NCBI GenBank assembly: GCA_036405895.1
Contig: DASWWS010000002.1
Span: 124,029-188,028 of the forward strand
Length of the DNA: 64,000 nt
From: Minisyncoccota bacterium
Lineage (GTDB): Bacteria > Patescibacteriota > Minisyncoccia > Phycocordibacterales > UBA9973
Direction: 5' to 3'
In this document: positions 9,577 to 45,288 of the stretch, piece after piece
How the letters are laid out: every line of letters starts with the position of its first letter
How positions within the stretch are numbered: position 1 is the first letter of the stretch
Notes under the pieces: model-generated
The model's input: the letters and a program-made list of their open reading frames with translations, nothing else
What the model was told of the DNA's origin: nothing
Database searches by the model: none
Program-made: the position numbers and the translations under genes

Positions 9577-9650
9577 CCGCTCTTAGCTCAGTTGGTTAGA
9601 GCGCCGAGCTTATACCTCGGTGGTCCATGGTTCGAATCCATGAGGGCGGA
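9577..9650 (+). tRNA. tRNA-Ile(UAU)
   Basis: Hand-folded: acceptor CCGCTCT/AGGGCGG (one G-U pair), D-arm GCTC-AGTTGGTTA-GAGC, anticodon stem CCGAG/CTCGG with loop CTTATAC, T-arm CATGG-TTCGAAT-CCATG. Confidence 0.8.
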
Positions 9651-9744
9651 CATTAAGTAAACAAATATGCAGTATGCCTCTGAGGCAATGGCGTGTAGCG
9701 TTTCGACCCCAGGGAGAGGCGGACAAGTGCTATACTGTACACAT

Positions 9745-12188: not shown

Positions 12189-12455
12189 AGGCTTTATTAT
12201 ACATAAAAACGATAAAAACGCCTTTTAGGGGGTATCGACCTCCAGGTTACTAAATATTTTTCAGGGTATCGCCTCACAAATCACTAAGCATAATTCTTCG
12301 CTCCACTCGAATTCTGCCAAGTGTTCGCGAGCCCGGCTCGGTTCCGCCATAGGCGGATACCTGCGCCTTTTCGATACCCACGCAAGACAAGCAGTTGCCC
12401 TGTTCCATCTCCACCTAAAAAACAAAAAACGCCCAAGGGCGCTAATGTTGTTACA
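12189..12455 (-). promoter_or_regulatory. Structured region between ssrA and ftsH with TATAAT 7 nt upstream of the ftsH ATG, repeated CGATACCC motifs, and the ssrA intrinsic terminator (12423-12446)
   Basis: Minus strand reads ...GCGCCCTTGGGCGC-TTTTTTGTTTTTT, a terminator. Three CGATACCC motifs follow. GTATAATAAAGCCT then ATG. Confidence 0.5.
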
Positions 12456-12841
12456 GGTGGAGATGGGGGTATCGAAACCCCGTGCAAATGATCACGAACA
12501 AGTACTTCTCCATGCGTAGTACGATTTAATTGTTAAGACAGAATCTCAAAACCGTACAAAACGATTCATGTCCGAGCCTCGATTGTTTCGGAGTACTGAC
12601 GAGACACGCAGTACTTCCTACGTTCGATGAATGTTGCCGCGACTACGTTATCGAACATCACGTAGAGCGACACCGGATTGACCTAAATTTAGGCGAATGC
12701 CGGAGCGAAGTTTCCAAAATATGGAGACTTCACTGATGCTGTGCTGTTGCCAGGTAAGCGTTCGGACGAATTTTACGAGATACGTCCATTCTCGGCATGC
12801 ATACAGGCCCGATACATCAAATGTCGAAACCTTTCATCCCC
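12456..12841 (-). ncRNA. ssrA: tmRNA (ssrA)
   Basis: Minus strand 5' end GGGGAUGAAAGGUUUCGAC matches the tmRNA 5' consensus. The GCAUGCCGAG...CUCGUAAAA PK1 region is almost identical to E. coli tmRNA. A tag reading frame ends ...GNFAPAFA-UAA (stop at 12689-12691). The 3' T-arm-like GGGGT-TTCGATA-CCCC is followed by acceptor strand CATCTCC-A-CC, which pairs with the 5' GGGGATG using one G-U. It is adjacent to smpB. Confidence 0.8.
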
Positions 12842-36635: not shown

Positions 36636-38564
36636 CTATACGCCAAATCGCTTTCGAAAGAGCCCGGCGCGGGTCGAAAACGGCGCTGTTACCGTACTGG
36701 TTCCCTGCCCTACTACCGCTCCTGGGTCGGAGACAACTGCATAAAAAGTGCCATCCGGCAGGTTAAGATACGCCCGCCCATATACTGAGGAGAGTGCCTT
36801 TACTACCGGAGTATTAGTCTCCTTTTCAAAGACCGTGATAAGCTTCCCGTCAATCGGAAGCTCGGCGGCTTTTGAAAGGAACACGCTCGCATAAGACCCG
36901 AATACTCCCACCGCTCGAAAGAGAGCAACAAGAACATATCCGGCACACAGCAAGAGTGAAACAAGGCTTGGGAAGAAAATGACATGCAATACTGACGCCA
37001 ATAAGCCGATGCCGAAAATGAGAAAGGCTCCATTGGTAAGCGCCACCTCATGATAGAGCAAGAACTCTTTAAATGAAGTAATAACAGGAGCAATGGGCGC
37101 ACCGCCCTGCACTGGAACATCAAATGGCTGTACTGGCTGGTTACCTCGAATAAGGATTGGTTGGTCGCTATATATAGTGTTGTACAAAAGTGGCGCTGCT
37201 GTAGCAAAGCCTAAGGGCGCATTCTGTGCGTCAATGCGAAGCGTGTATGCGCCGTCCGGAACTGCTGCGCTAAACGACCCGTCGCTTTGCGTAATAGCCA
37301 CAACCGCAACCGCACCGTAAGAATTCGTAAGAGTTACGTGCGCAAGCGCGACCGGGCGATGTGTTGCACTGTCATAGACTATCCCCCACGGCTTGACCGC
37401 AGGAGTAATGCCAAGCACCACCAGCAGGTTCTGCCATAAAAGATACGGGAAAAGAAGAAGCTCTTCAGCACCTGCAACTGGTACAACAATAAACAATGCA
37501 AGCGCGAGGGCGATAACAATGATCAGTCCAGCGATAGCAAGAGTACGGAGAAGAGTTTGAACAAAGGGGTCAGCCATCAATTCCGCCAGTGCGCGGTTCA
37601 TTGCATCAAACAGTGTCTGTATCCATGCAATCACCATGCGCAAAAATTCGATGACACGATCACGCGCTTCGGGGAGCTCTATGGTAACAACATTCGTAAT
37701 CGTATCAATGACCGGTGTAATGATAGGGATGCCGGGGTCAGCAGGAGCTGGCTCCTCTATTTCACCGCCGCCTGGGGTAACAGCCCCCGGAGTACCGGGG
37801 GTACCGGGGTTTTGAGAGGGCGGGGTGACAGGAGTGCCCGGTTCTGTTGGCTCTGTAGGATCTATTGGGTAGACAGGGTCAGGATATTCACTGTTTCCTC
37901 CGTCAATACACTCGGGGTCCTCATCATCAACAAATCCATCATTGTCATCGTCAGCGCTGTTGCTGCACTGCGTTACGGTTCCCTCTGGCTGGTCTGGACG
38001 GTAGCGCACAGGACGGTAGTCAGTACGCAAACAGTCGGCTCGAACGGTACAGTTAAATTCGATCCAACCGTAATTCTCGCTCCATGCATACCCAATATCG
38101 CCTCCCACGCCCCTAAAGTATCCCGCTCCATCAATCTGCACTTGCGGTGCATCATTGTTTTCAAACGGACCAAAATTAATCCAGCCGGTATTTTCTCCCC
38201 ATGCAAAACCGTACAGTGTACCGTTTCGGTCAATATCCACTTCAAAGCGCCCGTTCTCATCATTACATCCGCTCGAAGTACTGTCACAGCTCATCACGAT
38301 ATAGCCTGCAATCACCCCCCATGCAAAACCGTACAAGCCGTCATCGGTGATATGGATGTTGTAGTCTTCGGCTGTCGAGAATTTTCCGAAGTTAATTCGG
38401 TCGTCAGTATTGCCGTTGCCCACGTCCGGTGGATTCAAAAAATGAACGAGATAGTTTCCGTCTTCATACGGATCAATCGTACCGTCGTCTACGGCTGCAT
38501 GTGCGCTTGCGCTAAAAAATAATCCGAGAAGGATTAGAAGGAGAGATGCAAGGCGCAATTTCAT
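36636..38564 (-). CDS. Large cell-surface/membrane protein. Signal peptide, three 'G(F/Y)AWxENxGWIxF' repeats, Asp-rich Cys-containing segment, Pro/Thr linker, and a C-terminal multi-TM domain.
   Basis: Repeats GFAWGVIAGYIVM, GFAWGENTGWINF and GYAWSENYGWIEF. Start moved to MKLRLASLLLILLG. Shares the repeat type with 57535..59019. Confidence 0.55.
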   Translation of the reverse strand: MKLRLASLLLILLGLFFSASAHAAVDDGTIDPYEDGNYLVHFLNPPDVGNGNTDDRINFGKFSTAEDYNIHITDDGLYGFAWGVIAGYIVMSCDSTSSGCNDENGRFEVDIDRNGTLYGFAWGENTGWINFGPFENNDAPQVQIDGAGYFRGVGGDIGYAWSENYGWIEFNCTVRADCLRTDYRPVRYRPDQPEGTVTQCSNSADDDNDGFVDDEDPECIDGGNSEYPDPVYPIDPTEPTEPGTPVTPPSQNPGTPGTPGAVTPGGGEIEEPAPADPGIPIITPVIDTITNVVTIELPEARDRVIEFLRMVIAWIQTLFDAMNRALAELMADPFVQTLLRTLAIAGLIIVIALALALFIVVPVAGAEELLLFPYLLWQNLLVVLGITPAVKPWGIVYDSATHRPVALAHVTLTNSYGAVAVVAITQSDGSFSAAVPDGAYTLRIDAQNAPLGFATAAPLLYNTIYSDQPILIRGNQPVQPFDVPVQGGAPIAPVITSFKEFLLYHEVALTNGAFLIFGIGLLASVLHVIFFPSLVSLLLCAGYVLVALFRAVGVFGSYASVFLSKAAELPIDGKLITVFEKETNTPVVKALSSVYGRAYLNLPDGTFYAVVSDPGAVVGQGTSTVTAPFSTRAGLFRKRFGV

Positions 38565-39259: not shown

Positions 39260-39505
39260 ATGGCAAAAGAATGCATGATTACAGGAAAGAGCTCTCAGAT
39301 GGGCGGAAAATACGCAAACCGCACCCGTGCGACTATCTTTACTCCGACGGGCAACCACCGCAAGTATGCAAACCTTCAAAAGAAGCGCGTATACGTGCCA
39401 GAAATCGATAAGACCCTTACTCTTACCGTTTCTACCAAAGGCCTTCGCACTATCCAAAAGAACGGTGCCTACAACGCTCTCCGAACAGCAGGCGTACTCA
39501 AATAA
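39260..39505 (+). CDS. rpmB: 50S ribosomal protein L28
   Basis: MAKECMITGKSSQMGGKYANRTRATIFTPTGN...VSTKGLRTIQKNG matches L28. The ORF-track upstream extension was rejected. Confidence 0.85.
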   Translation: MAKECMITGKSSQMGGKYANRTRATIFTPTGNHRKYANLQKKRVYVPEIDKTLTLTVSTKGLRTIQKNGAYNALRTAGVLK

Positions 39506-39513
39506 TTAAAACA

Positions 39514-39544
39514 AAAGACCCCGCGAATCGGGGTCTTTTGTTTT
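39514..39544 (+). terminator. Intrinsic terminator AAAAGACCCCGCGAATCGGGGTCTTTTGTTTT
   Basis: Hairpin plus T-run after rpmB. Confidence 0.8.
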
Positions 39545-39601
39545 GAGACTATTTGTCAGTCTGCCTTACTCGTGTTAGAGTGTGGGCAAAACCGAGACCA
39601 C

Positions 39602-39763
39602 ATGAAAAAATTTTTTACTTCCACCGGACTTTTTTTACTCAGTATTCTTCTTCTAGGATTTTTTAAAAAAGAAGAACCGTCCGAACAGCAGCCTGTTTCA
39701 GAGCCTGACAGTACTAAAGAATACACAGGAGAAGCTGCTGGCGAACTCGGTATTGGGGCGTAA
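39602..39763 (+). CDS. Small secreted/lipo-protein (53 aa) hypothetical
   Basis: MKKFFTSTGLFLLSILLLGFF signal peptide. Followed by the terminator GCACTCTTCCACATAGTGGAAGAGTGC-TTTTTT. Confidence 0.4.
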   Translation: MKKFFTSTGLFLLSILLLGFFKKEEPSEQQPVSEPDSTKEYTGEAAGELGIGA

Positions 39764-39806
39764 TGCGAATCAATGCACTCTTCCACTATGTGGAAGAGTG
39801 CATTTT

Positions 39807-40670
39807 TTATTTCATATACCATTTTACCCCGTCGGTCTGAAGCGTTACTGTCCCCTTTTGCTGCGTACTGATGAAGGGGATAGAAAATTGCTCTAACCGA
39901 TTAGTCACTTCTTTTGCCGGGTGTCCGTAGCTATTAGCAACGCCAGCAGAAACAAGGCCGAGCATCGGACTGGTCGCGGTGAGAAATGCTGCACTGGTCG
40001 AAGTTTTTGACCCATGGTGTCCAAGTTTCAAAATGTCCACATCTACTGCCTTCGGATTTTCTGCTGAAAGAAAATGCTCAACAGATGACGGCGAGTCTCC
40101 TGTTAAGAGCATGCTCGTATCCCCCATCTGCAACCTTCCCACAACAGACGAGCTGTTTGTTTCCCAAAATGCCGTAGACCTGTCGGGAAACAGAATACTA
40201 AAATCTGTTTTTAGGAGTGGGTCGCTATCAAGCGCAATATTCATTCCGCGACGCGCATAGTATGCGGGAATAGTTCTCTTCTGCAGTTCTGCAAACAATG
40301 CTCGAAACTGCTCCGTATCAGTCACAGTATTGGGTGTAAGAAACAACCCCACATCATAGCGCGCGAATACAAGCGGAAGCCCTCCAATATGGTCGGCATC
40401 CGGGTGTGTGGCTATCACTACATCAATACTGCGGTCACCTCGCGGCATCACGCGCGCAAGCTCAGTCAATACTTTTGCATCCTTGCCCGCATCAACAAGT
40501 ATTTGCCTTCCGTTTTTTGCCTGTATCAAAAAACTGTCGCCTTGTCCCACGTTGAGCATATAGACCTCTGCCCGGCCGTCCTCTTTTTTCGGAATCATGA
40601 GAATACACCCTAAACCAAGACCGAGTGTGATGAGTATCATCGTTGCCAGTGTTTGAGGTTTACGGTTCAT
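39807..40670 (-). CDS. Membrane-anchored metallo-beta-lactamase-fold protein corresponding to the ComEC C-terminal nuclease domain
   Basis: LNVGQGDSFLI...HPDADHIGGL, the HxHxDH motif of the MBL fold, as found at the C-terminus of ComEC/Rec2. Confidence 0.7.
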   Translation of the reverse strand: MNRKPQTLATMILITLGLGLGCILMIPKKEDGRAEVYMLNVGQGDSFLIQAKNGRQILVDAGKDAKVLTELARVMPRGDRSIDVVIATHPDADHIGGLPLVFARYDVGLFLTPNTVTDTEQFRALFAELQKRTIPAYYARRGMNIALDSDPLLKTDFSILFPDRSTAFWETNSSSVVGRLQMGDTSMLLTGDSPSSVEHFLSAENPKAVDVDILKLGHHGSKTSTSAAFLTATSPMLGLVSAGVANSYGHPAKEVTNRLEQFSIPFISTQQKGTVTLQTDGVKWYMK

Positions 40671-41274
40671 GATAATAGTATATGATGAAAGTATGTATAC
40701 CGAAAAAACATTCACTATTGCTCCGTTTGCAAGTCTGTCCAAGAAATCAATAGAAGAGCACAAAAAGCTGTATGCGGGCTATGTAAAGAACGCAAACCTT
40801 GTTTTGGAAAAACTTGCTTCCTATAAGGATGACGAGTCAAAAGCATATGAGACCGCTGAGCTATATCGCCAATTTTCTTTTGAATTCAACGGCATGCGCA
40901 ATCACGAATGTTACTTTGCACTTCTTGATGGAAAGAGTGAGCTTGATAATGACAGCACACTTCTCGGTGCCATCAGTGCACAATGGGGCGATATGCAAAC
41001 ATTTAAAGACGCATTCCTCACACTTGCGCTTACCCGCGGTATCGGCTGGGCAATGCTCTCATACGACAAAGCGCAGAACAATTTAGTAATGCACTGGGTG
41101 GACGAACAGCACCTTGGACAGCTGCAAGGCACAACTGCAATCATCGCGCTCGATATGTGGGAGCACTCCTATGTTGCCGACTATCAGCCGTCCGGTAAAA
41201 AACAGTATGTAACAGACTTCATTGAGAATATGAACTGGTCTGCGGCAGAAGATTTTTTCGCACGCGCGAAATAA
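40669..41274 (+). CDS. sodA: Fe/Mn superoxide dismutase-like protein
   Basis: N-terminal His region IEEHKKLYAGYV. NGMRNHECYFALL matches the GGxxNHxxFW region. C-terminal DMWEHSYVADY...NW matches the DxWEHAYY signature. Confidence 0.7.
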   Translation: MIIVYDESMYTEKTFTIAPFASLSKKSIEEHKKLYAGYVKNANLVLEKLASYKDDESKAYETAELYRQFSFEFNGMRNHECYFALLDGKSELDNDSTLLGAISAQWGDMQTFKDAFLTLALTRGIGWAMLSYDKAQNNLVMHWVDEQHLGQLQGTTAIIALDMWEHSYVADYQPSGKKQYVTDFIENMNWSAAEDFFARAK

Positions 41275-42685
41275 ATTCCGAGAGCTCTCCCTTAAAGAGG
41301 GTGAGAAAAAATAAACAGTAGATTCCAACAACACTCCATGCCGAAAGGTCTGGAGTGTTATAGAGAGGAAGCAATGAAAACAATTGGAGTCCCTCTATCA
41401 CTACAGTTCCCACAAATGAAAGCAGTGCGCCTAACGCAGCCGCAACAGGAGCAATAAAAGAGCTTATGAGAACAACGGCTCCTCCTATCATAATCACGGG
41501 GGTAGCAACACCAAGAAAAATATTTGCTGGCACTGACGCAAGCGGAGCTATTCCTGCAAAATACATGAGATATGGCAGCATAAACAACGGCAGTAGCACC
41601 GCAAGCATCACAAGCTCCCGTATATTTACTATTGCGGTTTTTGGAATAAATGAAAACAGCATTTCGGCTTTTGGAATCACAGTGACCATACAAAGCGTTG
41701 CAAGAAATGAGAGATGAAAGCCGGGGTCGTAAAAAACCATTAGGGGCGACCAGAAGAAAAATACTATATAGCTAATAAACAGCGCTCGGAGGGCATTGTA
41801 TTCTTGAAGTCCCATCGTTGCCAAAAGTGCAATAGAACCCATCACTCCTGCACGCACAGCGGCAACCCCGGCCCCGCTGATAAGAACAAGAAAAATGATC
41901 CCAAAAAATGTCAGTACAAGGCGCACTCGAGTAGGAACACTGCGAAACATCACTCCAATAAATCCGCCCAAGAGGGTAATGTTGTAGCCTGAAAGGACTA
42001 ATACATGAAGCACTCCTGTAGTGCGAAAGAGGTCTTCTGTATCTTTTGGTATGCCGCCTTGGTACCCAAGCACCATACCAGAAACAATGCCGTCGACAGG
42101 AAATGAAATATGCCGGACAAATATATCAGAGAGCACATAGCGAGCAGTTGCAGCAACCCGTCGTGCGCTGAGAGCTCCAACGTGAACAAGAGCAATTTCG
42201 CTATCGTACATCACTGCAACAATACCTTTGCTTTCCAAATAATCCTTGTATGCAAAAAGCCTCCCTGTATCAGTAATAAAATCCTGTGGTTGCTCAACAA
42301 TACCGGTGATACTAACAATATCTCCGGGTACTACTGAAAGTGCTTCATATACAGTGACCTGTATTCTTTGGGAATAAGCCTCATCGCGTACTGTAAGGTT
42401 TGTACGGTCAAGCTCTCTGTTAACTGAGAGTACTGTTGCTTCAACTCTTCGCTCTCCAAACAATTCCAGCTGTAGCACCGTTTGCCGACTCCACACCAAA
42501 AGTCCTCCGATGATGCAAAAAATCACTACTGCACTTCCGGCTACCATCCCCTTTTTACTCGATACATACAGCCATGTGCACGCACCGAAAAATATACTAA
42601 TAAGGGCTAATTGTAAAAACGATACTCCAAACACATGGAACAATGCCGCACCGAAAGTAAGAAAAAGTATGGCAATCTCTACCAT
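41219..42685 (-). CDS. comEC: ComEC/Rec2 competence-domain membrane protein (DUF4131 plus the Competence domain, without an MBL domain)
   Basis: 488 aa polytopic protein. Conserved GAGVAAVRAGVMG region of the ComEC channel domain. Confidence 0.7.
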   Translation of the reverse strand: MVEIAILFLTFGAALFHVFGVSFLQLALISIFFGACTWLYVSSKKGMVAGSAVVIFCIIGGLLVWSRQTVLQLELFGERRVEATVLSVNRELDRTNLTVRDEAYSQRIQVTVYEALSVVPGDIVSITGIVEQPQDFITDTGRLFAYKDYLESKGIVAVMYDSEIALVHVGALSARRVAATARYVLSDIFVRHISFPVDGIVSGMVLGYQGGIPKDTEDLFRTTGVLHVLVLSGYNITLLGGFIGVMFRSVPTRVRLVLTFFGIIFLVLISGAGVAAVRAGVMGSIALLATMGLQEYNALRALFISYIVFFFWSPLMVFYDPGFHLSFLATLCMVTVIPKAEMLFSFIPKTAIVNIRELVMLAVLLPLFMLPYLMYFAGIAPLASVPANIFLGVATPVIMIGGAVVLISSFIAPVAAALGALLSFVGTVVIEGLQLFSLLPLYNTPDLSAWSVVGIYCLFFLTLFKGELSEFISRVRKNLLPQTSSYSQ

Positions 42686-42730
42686 ACTTTCACTCTAGCA
42701 AAACCACTATTAAATTTTCTTTAAGAGTAC

Positions 42731-42769
42731 CTAACGAGGACGGTCCTCGTTAGAAGGACCGTTCTTCTG
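42731..42769. terminator. GGACGGTCC-core hairpins (CTAACGAGGACGGTCCTCGTTAG plus a degenerate AGAAGGACCGTTCTTCT)
   Basis: Between comEC-N and rnhA. Confidence 0.65.
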
Positions 42770-42773
42770 AAAT

Positions 42774-43523
42774 TTAGAGAAGGCTTGCGAGGGTGTACTC
42801 TTGGATAAGTCCTGTTTCTTCACCCTTTGAAAATACCTTTTTATACTTTGCACCCTTCTTTCCTTTCACCCGCGCTTCGCATTCTGCCCATGTCTTATCG
42901 GTGTACACTTTTCCGCCCACCGATGAAACATAGGAGTATGCGGGACCTGTCTCTTTTTTTGCCCCTGGTTTTTTTACAGGCTTTTGCACTGATTTCGGTG
43001 GAGTATCAATCAGCTGTTGCTCGTATGCTTTCAGTGTTCCGTTAAAAAGGGTGTGGGGATTTTTCAACGCAGCCGCAACAGCAAGTTCGTCGCAGCGGTC
43101 ATTGTATTGGTGCCCGCTGTGTCCTTCGACTTTCACCAATTCAAGTTGTTTTCCAAAGTGGTCGCGCAGTTCCAAAAGCGCCTGCCACTGTATTTTGTTT
43201 TCCACGGGCTTTTTTGTTGCCGTGAGCCAGCCATTTCTTTTCCACCCATCGAGCCAGCTCTCAAGGCCACGGAGTACGTAGATCGAGTCGGCGTGCACCA
43301 ACACTTTCGCATCAGGAAAATGCTTCTTTGCATATTCCAATCCCTTTTCTACTGCCAAAAGCTCCATTTGGTTATTGGTCGCAGGGGTAACATTGCCGGC
43401 AAGCTCTACTGCTTTTGTGTCAGTCATCACTATTGCCGCCCACCCCCCGGGGCCTGGGTTTCCACGTGAAGCGCCGTCAGTATAAATCGTTACAGTGTTT
43501 TTCATCGAATCATTATATGACAA
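42774..43523 (-). CDS. rnhA: Ribonuclease HI with a C-terminal hybrid-binding-domain (HBD/Cauli_VI-like) extension
   Basis: N-terminal YTDGASRGNPGPGGWAAI RNase H motif. C-terminal YSYVSSVGGKVYTDKTWAECEARVKGKKGAKYKKVFSKGEE matches the RNase H1 N-terminal HBD consensus. Confidence 0.8.
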   Translation of the reverse strand: MSYNDSMKNTVTIYTDGASRGNPGPGGWAAIVMTDTKAVELAGNVTPATNNQMELLAVEKGLEYAKKHFPDAKVLVHADSIYVLRGLESWLDGWKRNGWLTATKKPVENKIQWQALLELRDHFGKQLELVKVEGHSGHQYNDRCDELAVAAALKNPHTLFNGTLKAYEQQLIDTPPKSVQKPVKKPGAKKETGPAYSYVSSVGGKVYTDKTWAECEARVKGKKGAKYKKVFSKGEETGLIQEYTLASLL

Positions 43524-43647
43524 AAAACAAGAATAGTCCCTGAGAACCGACTAACGGAGCCTGTCTGAGGCGAGTTGGAAGAATTCAACAGCCAGAAAAA
43601 TATGTGTGTGGTTCGAAGGGAGCTATTCTTATTTTTTGGAGTATTTC

Positions 43648-45288
43648 TTATAAAACCTCCCGTATTCTGAGGCGCACTCCGCTTCGAAAGCCTGGTTCGA
43701 GTGTTGCAGTAAAAGAAATGGTTGCGCCTGGAGAACACTGTGCGCACAGTTCATCGCTCGCAAAAAACGTAAACGCTGTCATGCTTGCAGTCGCGTCCTG
43801 CACCACACATTCCAAATGCTCGCGTGTTTTGCCGAACTTTTTCGCACTTACCACTTCAACATCTTTGAACAAAAACAATGGTTCAGGATTTCCTACCCCA
43901 AACGGTGCAAATCTTCTGATAACCTGATGGTGGCGAGTCGTTGCAATAGCAAGTGGGACTTCTATCGGTGTATGCGCAATGACTGCCTTTTCTGTATCCC
44001 CCACAGTTTCAATCGCACCATTGAGCGCATCTTCTAAAAAGTGTACCTGTTCTTTGCTCACAGAAAACCCGCCCGCTGCCTGGTGTCCTCCTGCGTGAAG
44101 AATCGCTCCTTCGGGAAGCGCCTGAAACAAATACGCGGCATGGTGCACTGCAATCATCCGGCATGAGCCTTTGAGGCTTCCGTCCCCCGCCTCGCCCCAC
44201 ACAAAAAAGCTTCGCTCGTACGTTTCCTGCAGCTTGTTTGCAACCAATCCTAAGACTGCTGGGCGCCATGTCGGGTCGCCAATTACCACAATAGCAGGCA
44301 GTTCGCGCGTGGAGAGGCGCGCATGCGCTTCTTTTACAATGCGTGCCACCAAAAGCTTTCGCTCGTTATTTATCTTGTCGAGTTCAGTAACGATAGTCAT
44401 CGCCTCTGATCGGTCCTCAGTTGCAAGCAAATTAAATGCGAGCATCGGGGTACGCATGCGCGACGCAGCATTGAGGCGCGGCGCAACAGTGAATGTCAGA
44501 TCAGTCTCGGAGAGCTTGTCCATCATCAGTCCATTGTTGGCAAAGAGTGTCTTCAAACCAACGCGACGCGTCTTTTTCATCACCATCATGCCGTATGCTA
44601 CAAGGACGCGGTTTTCGCCGGTCAGCGGGACCATGTCTGAGAGTGTTGCGAATCCCACCATGTCGAGGAGCCACTTCTCCCAGCCCGCTACAATGCCGTA
44701 CTCTTTCCCGTATTTTTCCAAAAATGCACGCACAAGCGTGAACGCAACACCTGCTCCGCAAAGGTCTTGATTAGAGTAGGTACCTTTTGCGGGATGCACA
44801 ACAGCGTATGCTGCGGGGTATTCCGGGAGTGGTGCGTGGTGGTCGGTCACTATGCAATCTATCCCGCGGCTTTGCGCGTCTGCAATTTCAGCAAGGGCGG
44901 TAATACCAACGTCCACGGTGAGCATCAGCGTTACTCGCTGTTTTTGCATCTCGTTAATACCAAGCACGCTCACGCCATATCCTTCATCATGGCGGTCCGG
45001 GATATATACTCGTACATAGTCTGCAACACCGAGTGCCTTAAAAAAATCGAGGAGGATTACTGCAGCCGGAATGCCATCGCAGTCATAGTCGGCGTAAATG
45101 CCAATAAATTCTTTCGCATCCACTGCGCGCTTGATGCGTTCAACCGCACGCTCCATGTCCTCAAATTTCCACACGTCGCCAAGGCTGTATGAAGGGAAAA
45201 GGAATTCTTGCTGTGCCTCTGGTGTGAGCCCCATTCGATCAATTAAAATAGCCTGCAATTCATCAGGCGTCGGAGTAGTTGGTTCCAT
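43648..45288 (-). CDS. recJ: single-stranded-DNA-specific exonuclease RecJ
   Basis: DHH motifs (IYADYDCDG and IVTDHHAP) and DHHA1 region. Start at MEPTTPTP, with its ATG inside the palindrome arm at 45286-45288. Confidence 0.85.
   Translation of the reverse strand: MEPTTPTPDELQAILIDRMGLTPEAQQEFLFPSYSLGDVWKFEDMERAVERIKRAVDAKEFIGIYADYDCDGIPAAVILLDFFKALGVADYVRVYIPDRHDEGYGVSVLGINEMQKQRVTLMLTVDVGITALAEIADAQSRGIDCIVTDHHAPLPEYPAAYAVVHPAKGTYSNQDLCGAGVAFTLVRAFLEKYGKEYGIVAGWEKWLLDMVGFATLSDMVPLTGENRVLVAYGMMVMKKTRRVGLKTLFANNGLMMDKLSETDLTFTVAPRLNAASRMRTPMLAFNLLATEDRSEAMTIVTELDKINNERKLLVARIVKEAHARLSTRELPAIVVIGDPTWRPAVLGLVANKLQETYERSFFVWGEAGDGSLKGSCRMIAVHHAAYLFQALPEGAILHAGGHQAAGGFSVSKEQVHFLEDALNGAIETVGDTEKAVIAHTPIEVPLAIATTRHHQVIRRFAPFGVGNPEPLFLFKDVEVVSAKKFGKTREHLECVVQDATASMTAFTFFASDELCAQCSPGATISFTATLEPGFRSGVRLRIREVL

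Follow-up and report, generated by a model that had tools for sequence, protein, structure and literature searches.

The MBL domain of the DNA-uptake protein ComEC is a Mn-dependent nuclease that lies outside the membrane along with the OB fold (PMC12455585, PMC13539106), and the H-x-D-x-D-H motif of this nuclease has been defined (PMC12455585). In vitro, the nuclease is about seven-fold faster when the DNA-binding fold is on the same polypeptide (PMC12455585). In Streptococcus pneumoniae, which has ComEC and EndA, strand degradation is carried out by a separate membrane-bound nuclease (PMC12455585). ComEC proteins without the MBL domain have been reported as the “DC” profile (Pimentel & Zhang 2018; PMC6299819), and a ComEC family of CPR lacks the MBL fusion (Meheust et al. 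2019; PMC6744442); the absence of the fusion in CPR was already published in 2019. A comEC gene is required for natural transformation in a cultivated Saccharibacterium (PMC10633639), and SOD has been reported in 66-83% of groundwater Patescibacteria genomes (PMC8672522). In the literature that we searched, neither a two-gene ComEC nor a SOD gene between comEC genes is explicitly described.

The locus described here belongs to an ultra-small bacterium of the Patescibacteria/CPR (Minisyncoccota; Paceibacterota) and lies in a contig of which a stretch of 64,000 nucleotides (the window) was analysed. The channel and MBL genes are on the same strand, 548 nt apart, with an antisense gene in the gap. 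The features, from right to left on the forward strand, are as follows.

41219..42685, minus strand: predicted ComEC channel subunit gene, 488 aa; OB fold (DUF4131) and transmembrane Competence part, without MBL domain
41219..41274: convergent tail-to-tail overlap of the channel and SOD genes, 56 nt, from sequence
40693..41274, plus strand: Fe/Mn-family SOD gene, 193 aa; between, and antisense to, both ComEC genes
40671..40692: head-to-head spacer of 22 nt that separates the MBL and SOD starts, from sequence
39807..40670, minus strand: predicted ComEC nuclease subunit gene, 287 aa; MBL domain behind a single N-terminal transmembrane anchor
39772..39804: hairpin, perfect 15 bp, two bases past the MBL stop codon

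The ComEC and SOD genes

A sequence-only reading of the window had placed the channel part at 41219-42685 and a membrane-anchored MBL domain at 39807-40670, both on the minus strand, and HMM searches bear this out, with Competence matching the 488-aa ORF and Lactamase_B the 287-aa ORF. The channel protein matches Pfam Competence (PF03772) over residues 204-464 at 118.2 bits (cut-off 23; E 5e-34), and DUF4131 (PF13567) over residues 26-160 near threshold, at 34.2 bits against a cut-off of 31.6. It scores 45.6 bits with TIGR00360 (cut-off 36.5) and 57.9 bits with TIGR00361 (model positions 47-350), and its residues 121-443 align to residues 146-467 of the solved ComEC 30bt_A. The MBL protein matches Lactamase_B at 64.8 bits (Pfam) and corresponds to positions 426-663 of the 663-position ComEC/Rec2 model TIGR00361 (128.9 bits, E 1.7e-37). 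Each protein alone scores below the full-length cut-off of TIGR00361 (190.05 bits), the level of a one-polypeptide ComEC; the parts are encoded by two genes.

The N-terminus of the MBL protein (approximately residues 8-26, LATMILITLGLGLGCILMI) is a hydrophobic anchor that aligns to the helix preceding the MBL domain in solved ComEC. Among solved structures, the protein matches a crystallised ComEC MBL domain (9ic4_A, E 5.5e-34) and, in the full-length ComEC 30bt_A, residues 515-792. Its ComEC-type H-x-D-x-D-H motif, H89-P-D91-A-D93-H94, aligns to an identical THPDADHIGGL in both structures, and residues H89, D91, D93, H94, D192, H218/H219 and H250 are invariant among 21 homologues. The best 120 homologues are all standalone proteins of 271-318 aa (~285 aa). 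Both ComEC halves map in order on one solved 801-aa chain, anchor helix included.

We consider it very probable that the locus encodes a natural two-subunit ComEC, normal in Patescibacteria, with an independent SOD gene lying between its genes in an old conserved block. The 488-aa subunit would bind DNA through its extracytoplasmic OB fold and form the transmembrane channel for ssDNA. Its 287-aa partner would be held by a single N-terminal helix, with the N-terminus inside and the catalytic domain outside, and would act as the Mn-dependent MBL nuclease, degrading the strand that is not translocated. In terms of fused ComEC, the break would come after the last channel helices and before the helix that leads into the MBL domain, so that the two proteins could reassemble non-covalently in the membrane into the single-chain architecture. 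Such a complex would take up DNA for transformation and perhaps also to scavenge nucleotides. That the two parts may assemble, import ssDNA and degrade the other strand is supported indirectly, by collinearity and conserved adjacency. Because covalent linkage boosts activity in vitro, the separation could come at a cost unless a complex forms; the OB fold and nuclease on separate polypeptides offer a natural experiment.

The intervening protein is annotated by NCBI and JGI as a Fe-Mn family SOD. It matches Sod_Fe_C at 74.9 bits (cut-off 20.9), Sod_Fe_N at 27.1 bits, barely at the cut-off of 27.0, and PDB SODs at E 1e-18, and its scores with NCBIfam equivalog models are 40-74 bits, with cut-offs of 300-363. 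The AF2 model (pLDDT 92.2) has a two-domain fold that Foldseek matches to many solved Fe/Mn SODs (TM 0.77-0.84 over ~200 columns). In a residue survey of 51 sequences, the one in the window and 50 relatives, the ligands His26, His81, Asp167 and His171 are invariant (51/51) in E. coli MnSOD numbering, which was set by E. coli guide sequences and which places the first ligand His only if a one-residue deletion before Tyr34 is allowed. A second alignment (A2), in which H23, H71, D154 and H158 are invariant, agrees with the four ligands, and the PDB alignments concur. In the second sphere, Tyr34 is present in all 51 sequences, and position 146 holds Gln in 39 and His in the other 12; the His30 position is Leu in 51/51. 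The possibility of a degenerate pseudo-enzyme was rejected on the conservation of every metal ligand and on the confident fold. Judged from its sequence, this is a divergent but intact Fe/Mn superoxide dismutase gene, and its product is most likely a working cytoplasmic metalloenzyme that acts independently of ComEC. The SOD-like gene had first been drawn at 40669-41274; the gene is indeed there between the ComEC parts, but homologues and the recorded gene calls support the ATG at 40693 as its start. The alternative, the ATG at 40669, would run into the MBL start codon.

Gene order among relatives

The locus was compared with 80 related genome loci, many of them from metagenome-assembled genomes with generic organism labels. 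The order channel gene, antisense SOD, MBL gene was found in 43 of the 80, and a further nine have the SOD and MBL genes at a contig edge. At 12 loci the channel and MBL genes are directly adjacent with no SOD, and at one (Anaerolineae) the ComEC parts are fused. In more basal relatives, the ComEC genes abut, or the longest ORFs run a few nucleotides into each other. The SOD-containing order is kept down to ~40% MBL identity. Since relatives share a conserved split with both parts intact, the arrangement is normal for the lineage and not an anomaly of this genome.

A tree of the MBL protein, a single-gene neighbour-joining tree without support values, groups the SOD-containing loci into one large clade, with adjacent-type loci mostly basal. 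The exceptions are L079, a SOD-containing locus that does not group with the main clade, and a few loci without SOD that do; several members inside the clade (L016, L030 and L041) have lost the SOD from the site and kept the ComEC pair. The pattern suggests a single old SOD insertion into an already split operon. From the locus comparison, the ancestor would have had comEC-N and MBL genes that were split and directly adjacent. The insertion of the SOD on the opposite strand would date to the ancestor of a large clade of Paceibacteria (Nomura-, Kaiser-, Zambryski-, Taylor- and Campbell-bacteria and relatives), and the gene would have been kept between the comEC genes ever since. The insertion can serve as a synteny marker for this clade.

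The MBL gene is not always close to a channel gene. At L018, 4 kb separate the two, and at L025, L064, L077 and L080 there is no channel gene within ~7 kb upstream of the MBL gene; the MBL protein could have an independent role in some lineages. These five loci would fit an alternative in which the 287-aa protein no longer has a ComEC function and stays near the channel gene by descent only; it might, for instance, be a secreted or anchored nuclease that serves in defence or in the scavenging of nutrients. Matches to defence MBL proteins point the same way, but they are weak and far under the cut-offs (Avs1a, 69.9 bits against a cut-off of 420; Anti-Pycsar Apyc1, also weak). Against this alternative, ComEC C-terminal domains are by far the best matches, the ComEC-specific motif is identical, and the anchor helix is homologous to the ComEC helix that precedes the MBL domain. 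Furthermore, in the 12 basal loci the gene is adjacent to the channel gene or the longest ORFs overlap, and in one locus the two are fused. We therefore regard a departure from ComEC function as quite improbable. Collinearity with solved ComEC and adjacency in relatives likewise lead us to reject two unrelated genes, one of three options left by the sequence-only reading; the option of a natural two-component ComEC is supported, with halves that are collinear with solved ComEC, intact and under purifying selection, and adjacent or fused in relatives.

The third option was a gene disrupted by insertion. A single comEC broken by the SOD gene, or a chimeric join, in this genome only would make the locus look unusual, as it does, and nothing else favours it. 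An identical channel protein was found on eight Logan contigs, and the three examined, each from a different run, have the same three-gene layout; the MBL and SOD proteins were each found on 10 contigs, the longest of 276 kb. Relatives with 78-81% MBL identity have the same structure, 56-nt overlap included. The layout is thus not a misassembly, since eight contigs carry the identical channel protein and relatives share the layout. GC is flat across the locus, and no repeats or mobile-element signatures were found flanking the SOD gene. All three genes are under purifying selection, with dN/dS of 0.06-0.20 (0.17-0.20 for the channel gene against L084 and L085, and 0.06-0.08 for SOD). Because 43-52 of 80 divergent genomes have the arrangement, with all parts conserved, a recent disruption or artefact is extremely unlikely, and misassembly and recent insertion were rejected on the contigs, the layout of close relatives, the missing flanking repeats and the flat GC. 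The locus is a lineage-typical variant, the inherited state of the whole lineage and not a disruption.

Gene junctions and the position of the SOD gene

The SOD 3' end had been said to overlap the start of the channel gene by ~55 nt; the overlap is real (56 nt) but lies where the channel gene stops and not where it starts. It has the same length in L084 and L085, and convergent channel/SOD overlaps of 20-86 nt occur in 16 of the 43 loci with the same gene order. At the other junction, the 22-nt spacer would place any promoters inside neighbouring coding sequence. In close relatives, this spacer is 44-45 nt long and of unrelated sequence. Promoter-like consensus hexamers lie on both strands at 40659-40741, which is weak evidence. 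A scan of 39300-43700 gave 11 promoter-like sites where 5.5 are expected, all of them consensus-level matches only, and the terminator scan of the same interval found no terminator-like hairpin between the channel, SOD and MBL genes. The promoter and terminator scans are too weak to define transcription units. Downstream of the MBL gene, the hairpin at 39772-39804 (folding energy -24.5 kcal/mol, z = -7) is likely a bidirectional terminator for that gene and for a convergent 53-aa ORF at 39602-39763 on the plus strand.

Does the arrangement itself explain why the antisense SOD has stayed between the comEC genes? The convergent overlap and a head-to-head promoter overlap might let SOD and ComEC expression interfere, and oxygen stress could thereby be linked to DNA uptake; alternatively, two Mn-using enzymes might be co-regulated, the ComEC nuclease being Mn-dependent (PMC12455585) and the SOD of the Fe/Mn family. 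Such coupling would be consistent with a gene order kept in 43-52 of 80 loci down to ~40% MBL identity, with the recurrence of a convergent overlap of 44-86 nt in many lineages, and with the short spacer and lack of terminator-like hairpins seen here. However, RecJ, RNase H, L28 and M50 peptidase are retained next to the three genes in 24-25 of 25 loci with SOD, so the position of the SOD is no more conserved than its surroundings and the gene-order pattern is explained by general synteny, which takes away the chief argument for coupling. The conserved block, RecJ-RNaseH-ComEC-SOD-MBL-L28-M50, is equally conserved throughout, and nothing therefore singles out a functional link between SOD and ComEC. 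Both junctions are variable: some are overlaps, whereas others span more than 1-2 kb and hold unrelated genes. Relatives with 80% protein identity already differ in the spacer sequence, and several members of the clade have lost the SOD from the site but kept the ComEC pair. Functional coupling is, in our judgement, very unlikely.

The gap genes and the spacing differ between genomes. A search of the larger-gap loci for a recurrent extra gene tying SOD to ComEC gave no pattern. The gap ORFs are heterogeneous: some are NUDIX-like, three loci have a small membrane protein (“FLGNYL”), and there are others.

The position of the SOD is most likely frozen synteny in compact genomes and not a mechanistic link; its placement gives no signal above background gene-order conservation. 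A stronger form of the coupling idea, in which the antisense SOD is a selected regulatory architecture that makes expression of SOD and of the ComEC channel and nuclease mutually antagonistic and DNA uptake redox-gated, would be a long shot. If true, it would mean that host-dependent bacteria gate DNA uptake by redox state, and the split would also allow nuclease and channel levels to be set independently.

Comparison with known systems

The locus is otherwise ordinary, and its ComEC and SOD functions are already annotated in public databases. The SOD shares the two-domain fold of Fe/Mn SODs (SodA/SodB; 1ar4, 1p7g, 1coj; cambialistic and archaeal-type) and retains the four metal ligands, Tyr34, Trp169 and Gln/His146. 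It differs from them as a divergent subfamily: Leu stands for His30, one residue is missing between the first His ligand and Tyr34, and a GMRxHE motif is found in place of GGHxNHS.

Compared with single-chain ComEC/Rec2 (Bacillus subtilis; Moorella structures 30bt and 9ic4), the three modules come in identical order. Channel motifs are common to both, e.g., VRAGVMG aligned to SRAGIMAG, the H-x-D-x-D-H motif is the same, and the helix before the MBL domain is homologous. Here, in contrast, the polypeptide is broken into two genes between channel and anchor helix, and the genes are separated by 548 nt that hold an antisense gene. The likeness to S. pneumoniae is that a separate nuclease protein, not an active domain of ComEC, is present in both; EndA is unrelated to the MBL fold, whereas the nuclease here is the ComEC MBL domain itself.

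In its profile, DUF4131 plus Competence, the 488-aa protein is exactly like the “DC” and CPR ComEC proteins. In those surveys the nuclease domain is counted as absent or lost, and CPR are scored as lacking it, whereas here it is encoded by a neighbouring, conserved, membrane-anchored gene. With the missing domain encoded next door, the ComEC system is therefore split, not truncated, and the “loss” of Lactamase_B in the CPR radiation needs rereading.

Two genes for one ComEC

Three ORFs occupy window positions 39807-42685 by ORF reading:

41219-42685, minus strand: channel gene, 488 aa, with DUF4131 (OB fold, 34.2 bits) and Competence (118.2 bits) domains
40693-41274, plus strand: Fe/Mn superoxide dismutase (SOD) gene, 193 aa, between the two minus-strand genes, with Sod_Fe_C (74.9 bits) and Sod_Fe_N (27.1 bits, barely at the model cut-off in the domain search)
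39807-40670, minus strand: metallo-beta-lactamase (MBL) gene, 287 aa from an ATG, with an MBL domain (64.8 bits)

The longest form of the MBL ORF is 318 aa from a TTG start, and the ATG at 40670 was chosen because the homologues are 283-290 aa. The SOD start at 40693 is backed by gene calls on record and by homologue alignments, which puts the SOD and MBL starts head-to-head with 22 nt between them. The stop codon of SOD (41272-41274) is 56 nt past that of the channel gene (41219-41221), therefore the two genes overlap tail-to-tail by their stop ends; the sequence-only reading had wrongly placed this overlap at the channel gene start. At that start, a 12-bp stem (42663-42691, minus strand; -16.7 kcal/mol, z = -3.2) pairs codons 5-8 with the start codon (ATG, 42685) and its GAAAG Shine-Dalgarno-like element, and may either control translation or serve as terminator for the RNase H gene upstream. 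The RNase H gene (42774-43505, minus strand) has a Lys-rich C-terminal extension of ~90 residues and a faint Cauli_VI-type match, and adjoins the channel gene in all 25 SOD-containing relatives.

The proposal that a competence/channel part and a membrane-anchored MBL part of ComEC are encoded by separate genes is borne out by the domain searches, with Competence on one ORF and the MBL domain on the other, and by matches of both proteins to parts of the same references. On TIGR00361, the ComEC/Rec2 equivalog model, the channel protein matches positions 47-350 and the MBL protein covers 426-663, the last third (E 1.7e-37). In the PDB search, the channel protein matches residues 146-467 and the MBL protein residues 515-792 of the full-length 801-aa ComEC 30bt_A, thus the two tile one ComEC in order. 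The latter alignment starts within the hydrophobic N-terminal segment of the MBL protein, which therefore corresponds to the helix leading into the MBL domain of single-chain ComEC, and the break falls between the channel helices and this anchor helix. The MBL protein also matches 9ic4_A, a ComEC MBL domain crystallized on its own (E 5.5e-34). Its nuclease motif, H89-P-D91-A-D93-H94, belongs to the H-x-D-x-D-H type that is specific to ComEC and was described in Moorella glycerini (PMC12455585); THPDADHIGGL is letter-for-letter the same in solved ComEC proteins, and the motif residues and other conserved His/Asp are invariant across 21 aligned homologues.

An assembly artefact is ruled out by recurrence. 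The identical channel protein was found on 8 Logan contigs, and the three of these shown, each from a separate sequencing run, have the same three-gene layout and neighbours. Ten contigs carry the MBL protein and ten the SOD protein; the longest, at 276 kb, is from NCBI and bears the label Candidatus Paceibacterota. Two related loci, L084 (81% MBL identity) and L085 (78%), share the gene lengths and the 56-nt overlap. Against these two, the channel gene has a dN/dS of 0.17-0.20, SOD one of 0.06-0.08 and MBL one of ~0.09, at a synonymous divergence >1; judged by these ratios, all three genes look functional.

Distribution of the split among relatives

Each of the best 120 MBL homologues, which come from Paceibacterota, Minisyncoccia and Patescibacteria, is a standalone protein, 271-318 aa long; their sources call them either ComEC/Rec2 family competence protein or MBL fold metallo-hydrolase. 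The ORFs of 80 related genome loci were searched with the three window proteins. The channel gene, antisense SOD and MBL gene occur in this order at 43 loci, named genomes including Nomura-, Kaiser-, Zambryski-, Taylor- and Campbell-bacteria, and 9 more show SOD and MBL with a contig end cutting the channel side. At 12 loci, Levyibacteriota and Andersenbacteria included, the channel and MBL genes are directly adjacent without SOD; five of these pairs are spaced by 6-20 nt, in another five the longest ORFs overlap by 4-22 nt, and the remaining two leave gaps of 71 and 201 nt. Three loci have non-SOD content between the two genes, and 12 an MBL gene with no channel gene found beside it, 7 of these having too little upstream sequence for a decision. 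Only L075, from Anaerolineae, encodes a fused ComEC (808 aa). Split ComEC is thus the rule in this lineage, and the arrangement singled out by the sequence-only reading is normal there.

A single-gene neighbor-joining tree was built on the MBL domain, with the fused protein as root and without support values. In it, the adjacent-type loci are mostly basal, and the loci with SOD group together in one large clade (outlier L079), with a few SOD-less members inside it (L016, L030, L041). The simplest history would be a split adjacent pair, one old SOD insertion and occasional loss. Standalone ComEC-type MBL proteins of ~290-350 aa were also seen outside Patescibacteria, in L080 ([Eubacterium] yurii), L077 (Anaerolineae) and L070, with no channel gene found within ~7 kb upstream of the MBL gene; L070 is a bin labelled Methanomicrobiales, the archaeal label being probably a binning error.

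The dismutase gene and its neighborhood

A synteny baseline was drawn from 35 loci, those in which the MBL gene has 5.5 kb or more of sequence on each side; 25 of these loci contain SOD. In these 25, RNase H, L28 and the M50 peptidase are always kept, RecJ in 24, and S12 and S7 in 20 each; therefore the triad is no more conserved than the surrounding block. Between the channel gene and SOD there is anything from an 86-nt overlap to a 1.8-kb distance, and SOD and MBL lie up to 2.4 kb apart; the gaps hold unrelated genes. The 22-nt spacer is replaced by unrelated sequence of 44-45 nt in relatives at 80% protein identity. The SOD placement is best explained by frozen synteny. Regulatory interference between the SOD and ComEC genes has a low probability. 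A simple promoter/terminator scan placed no terminator inside the triad and gave promoter matches at consensus level only, which neither supports nor excludes read-through. Among the gap occupants are a ~145-aa membrane protein (FLGNYL...) between channel and SOD genes (L019 5232-5657, L021 4529-4972, L039 5830-6276) and NUDIX-like ORFs between SOD and MBL (L004, L059).

The window SOD is labelled Fe-Mn family SOD in public sources, and its confident AlphaFold2 model (pLDDT 92.2) superposes over its full length on solved SODs of the Fe, Mn and cambialistic types (TM 0.77-0.84). In 51/51 SOD sequences from the loci, all four metal ligands are kept together with Tyr34 and Trp169 (E. coli MnSOD numbering), and position 146 is Gln or His. 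Unlike textbook SODs, every member has Leu at the His30 position, and the clade lacks one residue between Tyr34 and the first metal ligand and shows GMRxHE in place of GGHxNHS; by alignment it is a distinct subfamily. For Patescibacteria from groundwater, SOD genes are reported in 66-83% of genomes (PMC8672522).

Further along the minus strand, a 642-aa protein (36636-38564) starts with a signal-like N-terminus and combines repeated GFAWG/GWI(N/E)F motifs with several hydrophobic segments, a linker rich in Pro and Thr, and a CarboxypepD_reg match; it keeps its position in the close relatives L084 and L085 but in only 1/35 more distant loci. The window also holds a full-length tmRNA gene (12455-12841, minus strand, 108.7 bits) and a tRNA-Ile with anticodon TAT (UAU; 9577-9651, plus strand). 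The UAU anticodon is an uncommon bacterial way to read AUA codons, and given this tRNA the genome may not need the lysidine (TilS) route.

Predicted mechanism and relation to known ComEC

By homology with the solved and characterized ComEC of PMC12455585 and PMC13539106, the 488-aa subunit would form the ssDNA channel and carry the external OB fold that binds DNA. Its 287-aa partner, with the N-terminus inside and catalytic domain outside, would act as a Mn-dependent endo- and 5'-exonuclease on the non-translocated strand. The two would have to associate in the membrane, as the homologous anchor helix and the OB-MBL interface of the full-length structure suggest. Covalent linkage to a DNA-binding fold raised nuclease activity ~seven-fold in vitro (PMC12455585), and a stable non-covalent complex would provide the same proximity. 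In a cultivated Saccharibacterium, comEC is needed for natural transformation and dispensable for growth (PMC10633639).

In the literature searched, including PMC6299819 and PMC6744442, neither the missing domain as a conserved neighboring gene nor an SOD gene between two comEC genes in a large clade is described. The 'DC' profile, DUF4131 and Competence only, is common (PMC6299819), CPR genomes were reported to be essentially free of the ComEC-MBL fusion (Meheust et al. 2019, PMC6744442), and some of these small MBL proteins are already labelled ComEC family by database annotators. Two-subunit ComEC is thus partly anticipated, normal for its lineage and of little surprise to a specialist. It changes the reading of domain 'loss' in CPR ComEC, and offers a natural split of the single-chain protein for structure-function work.
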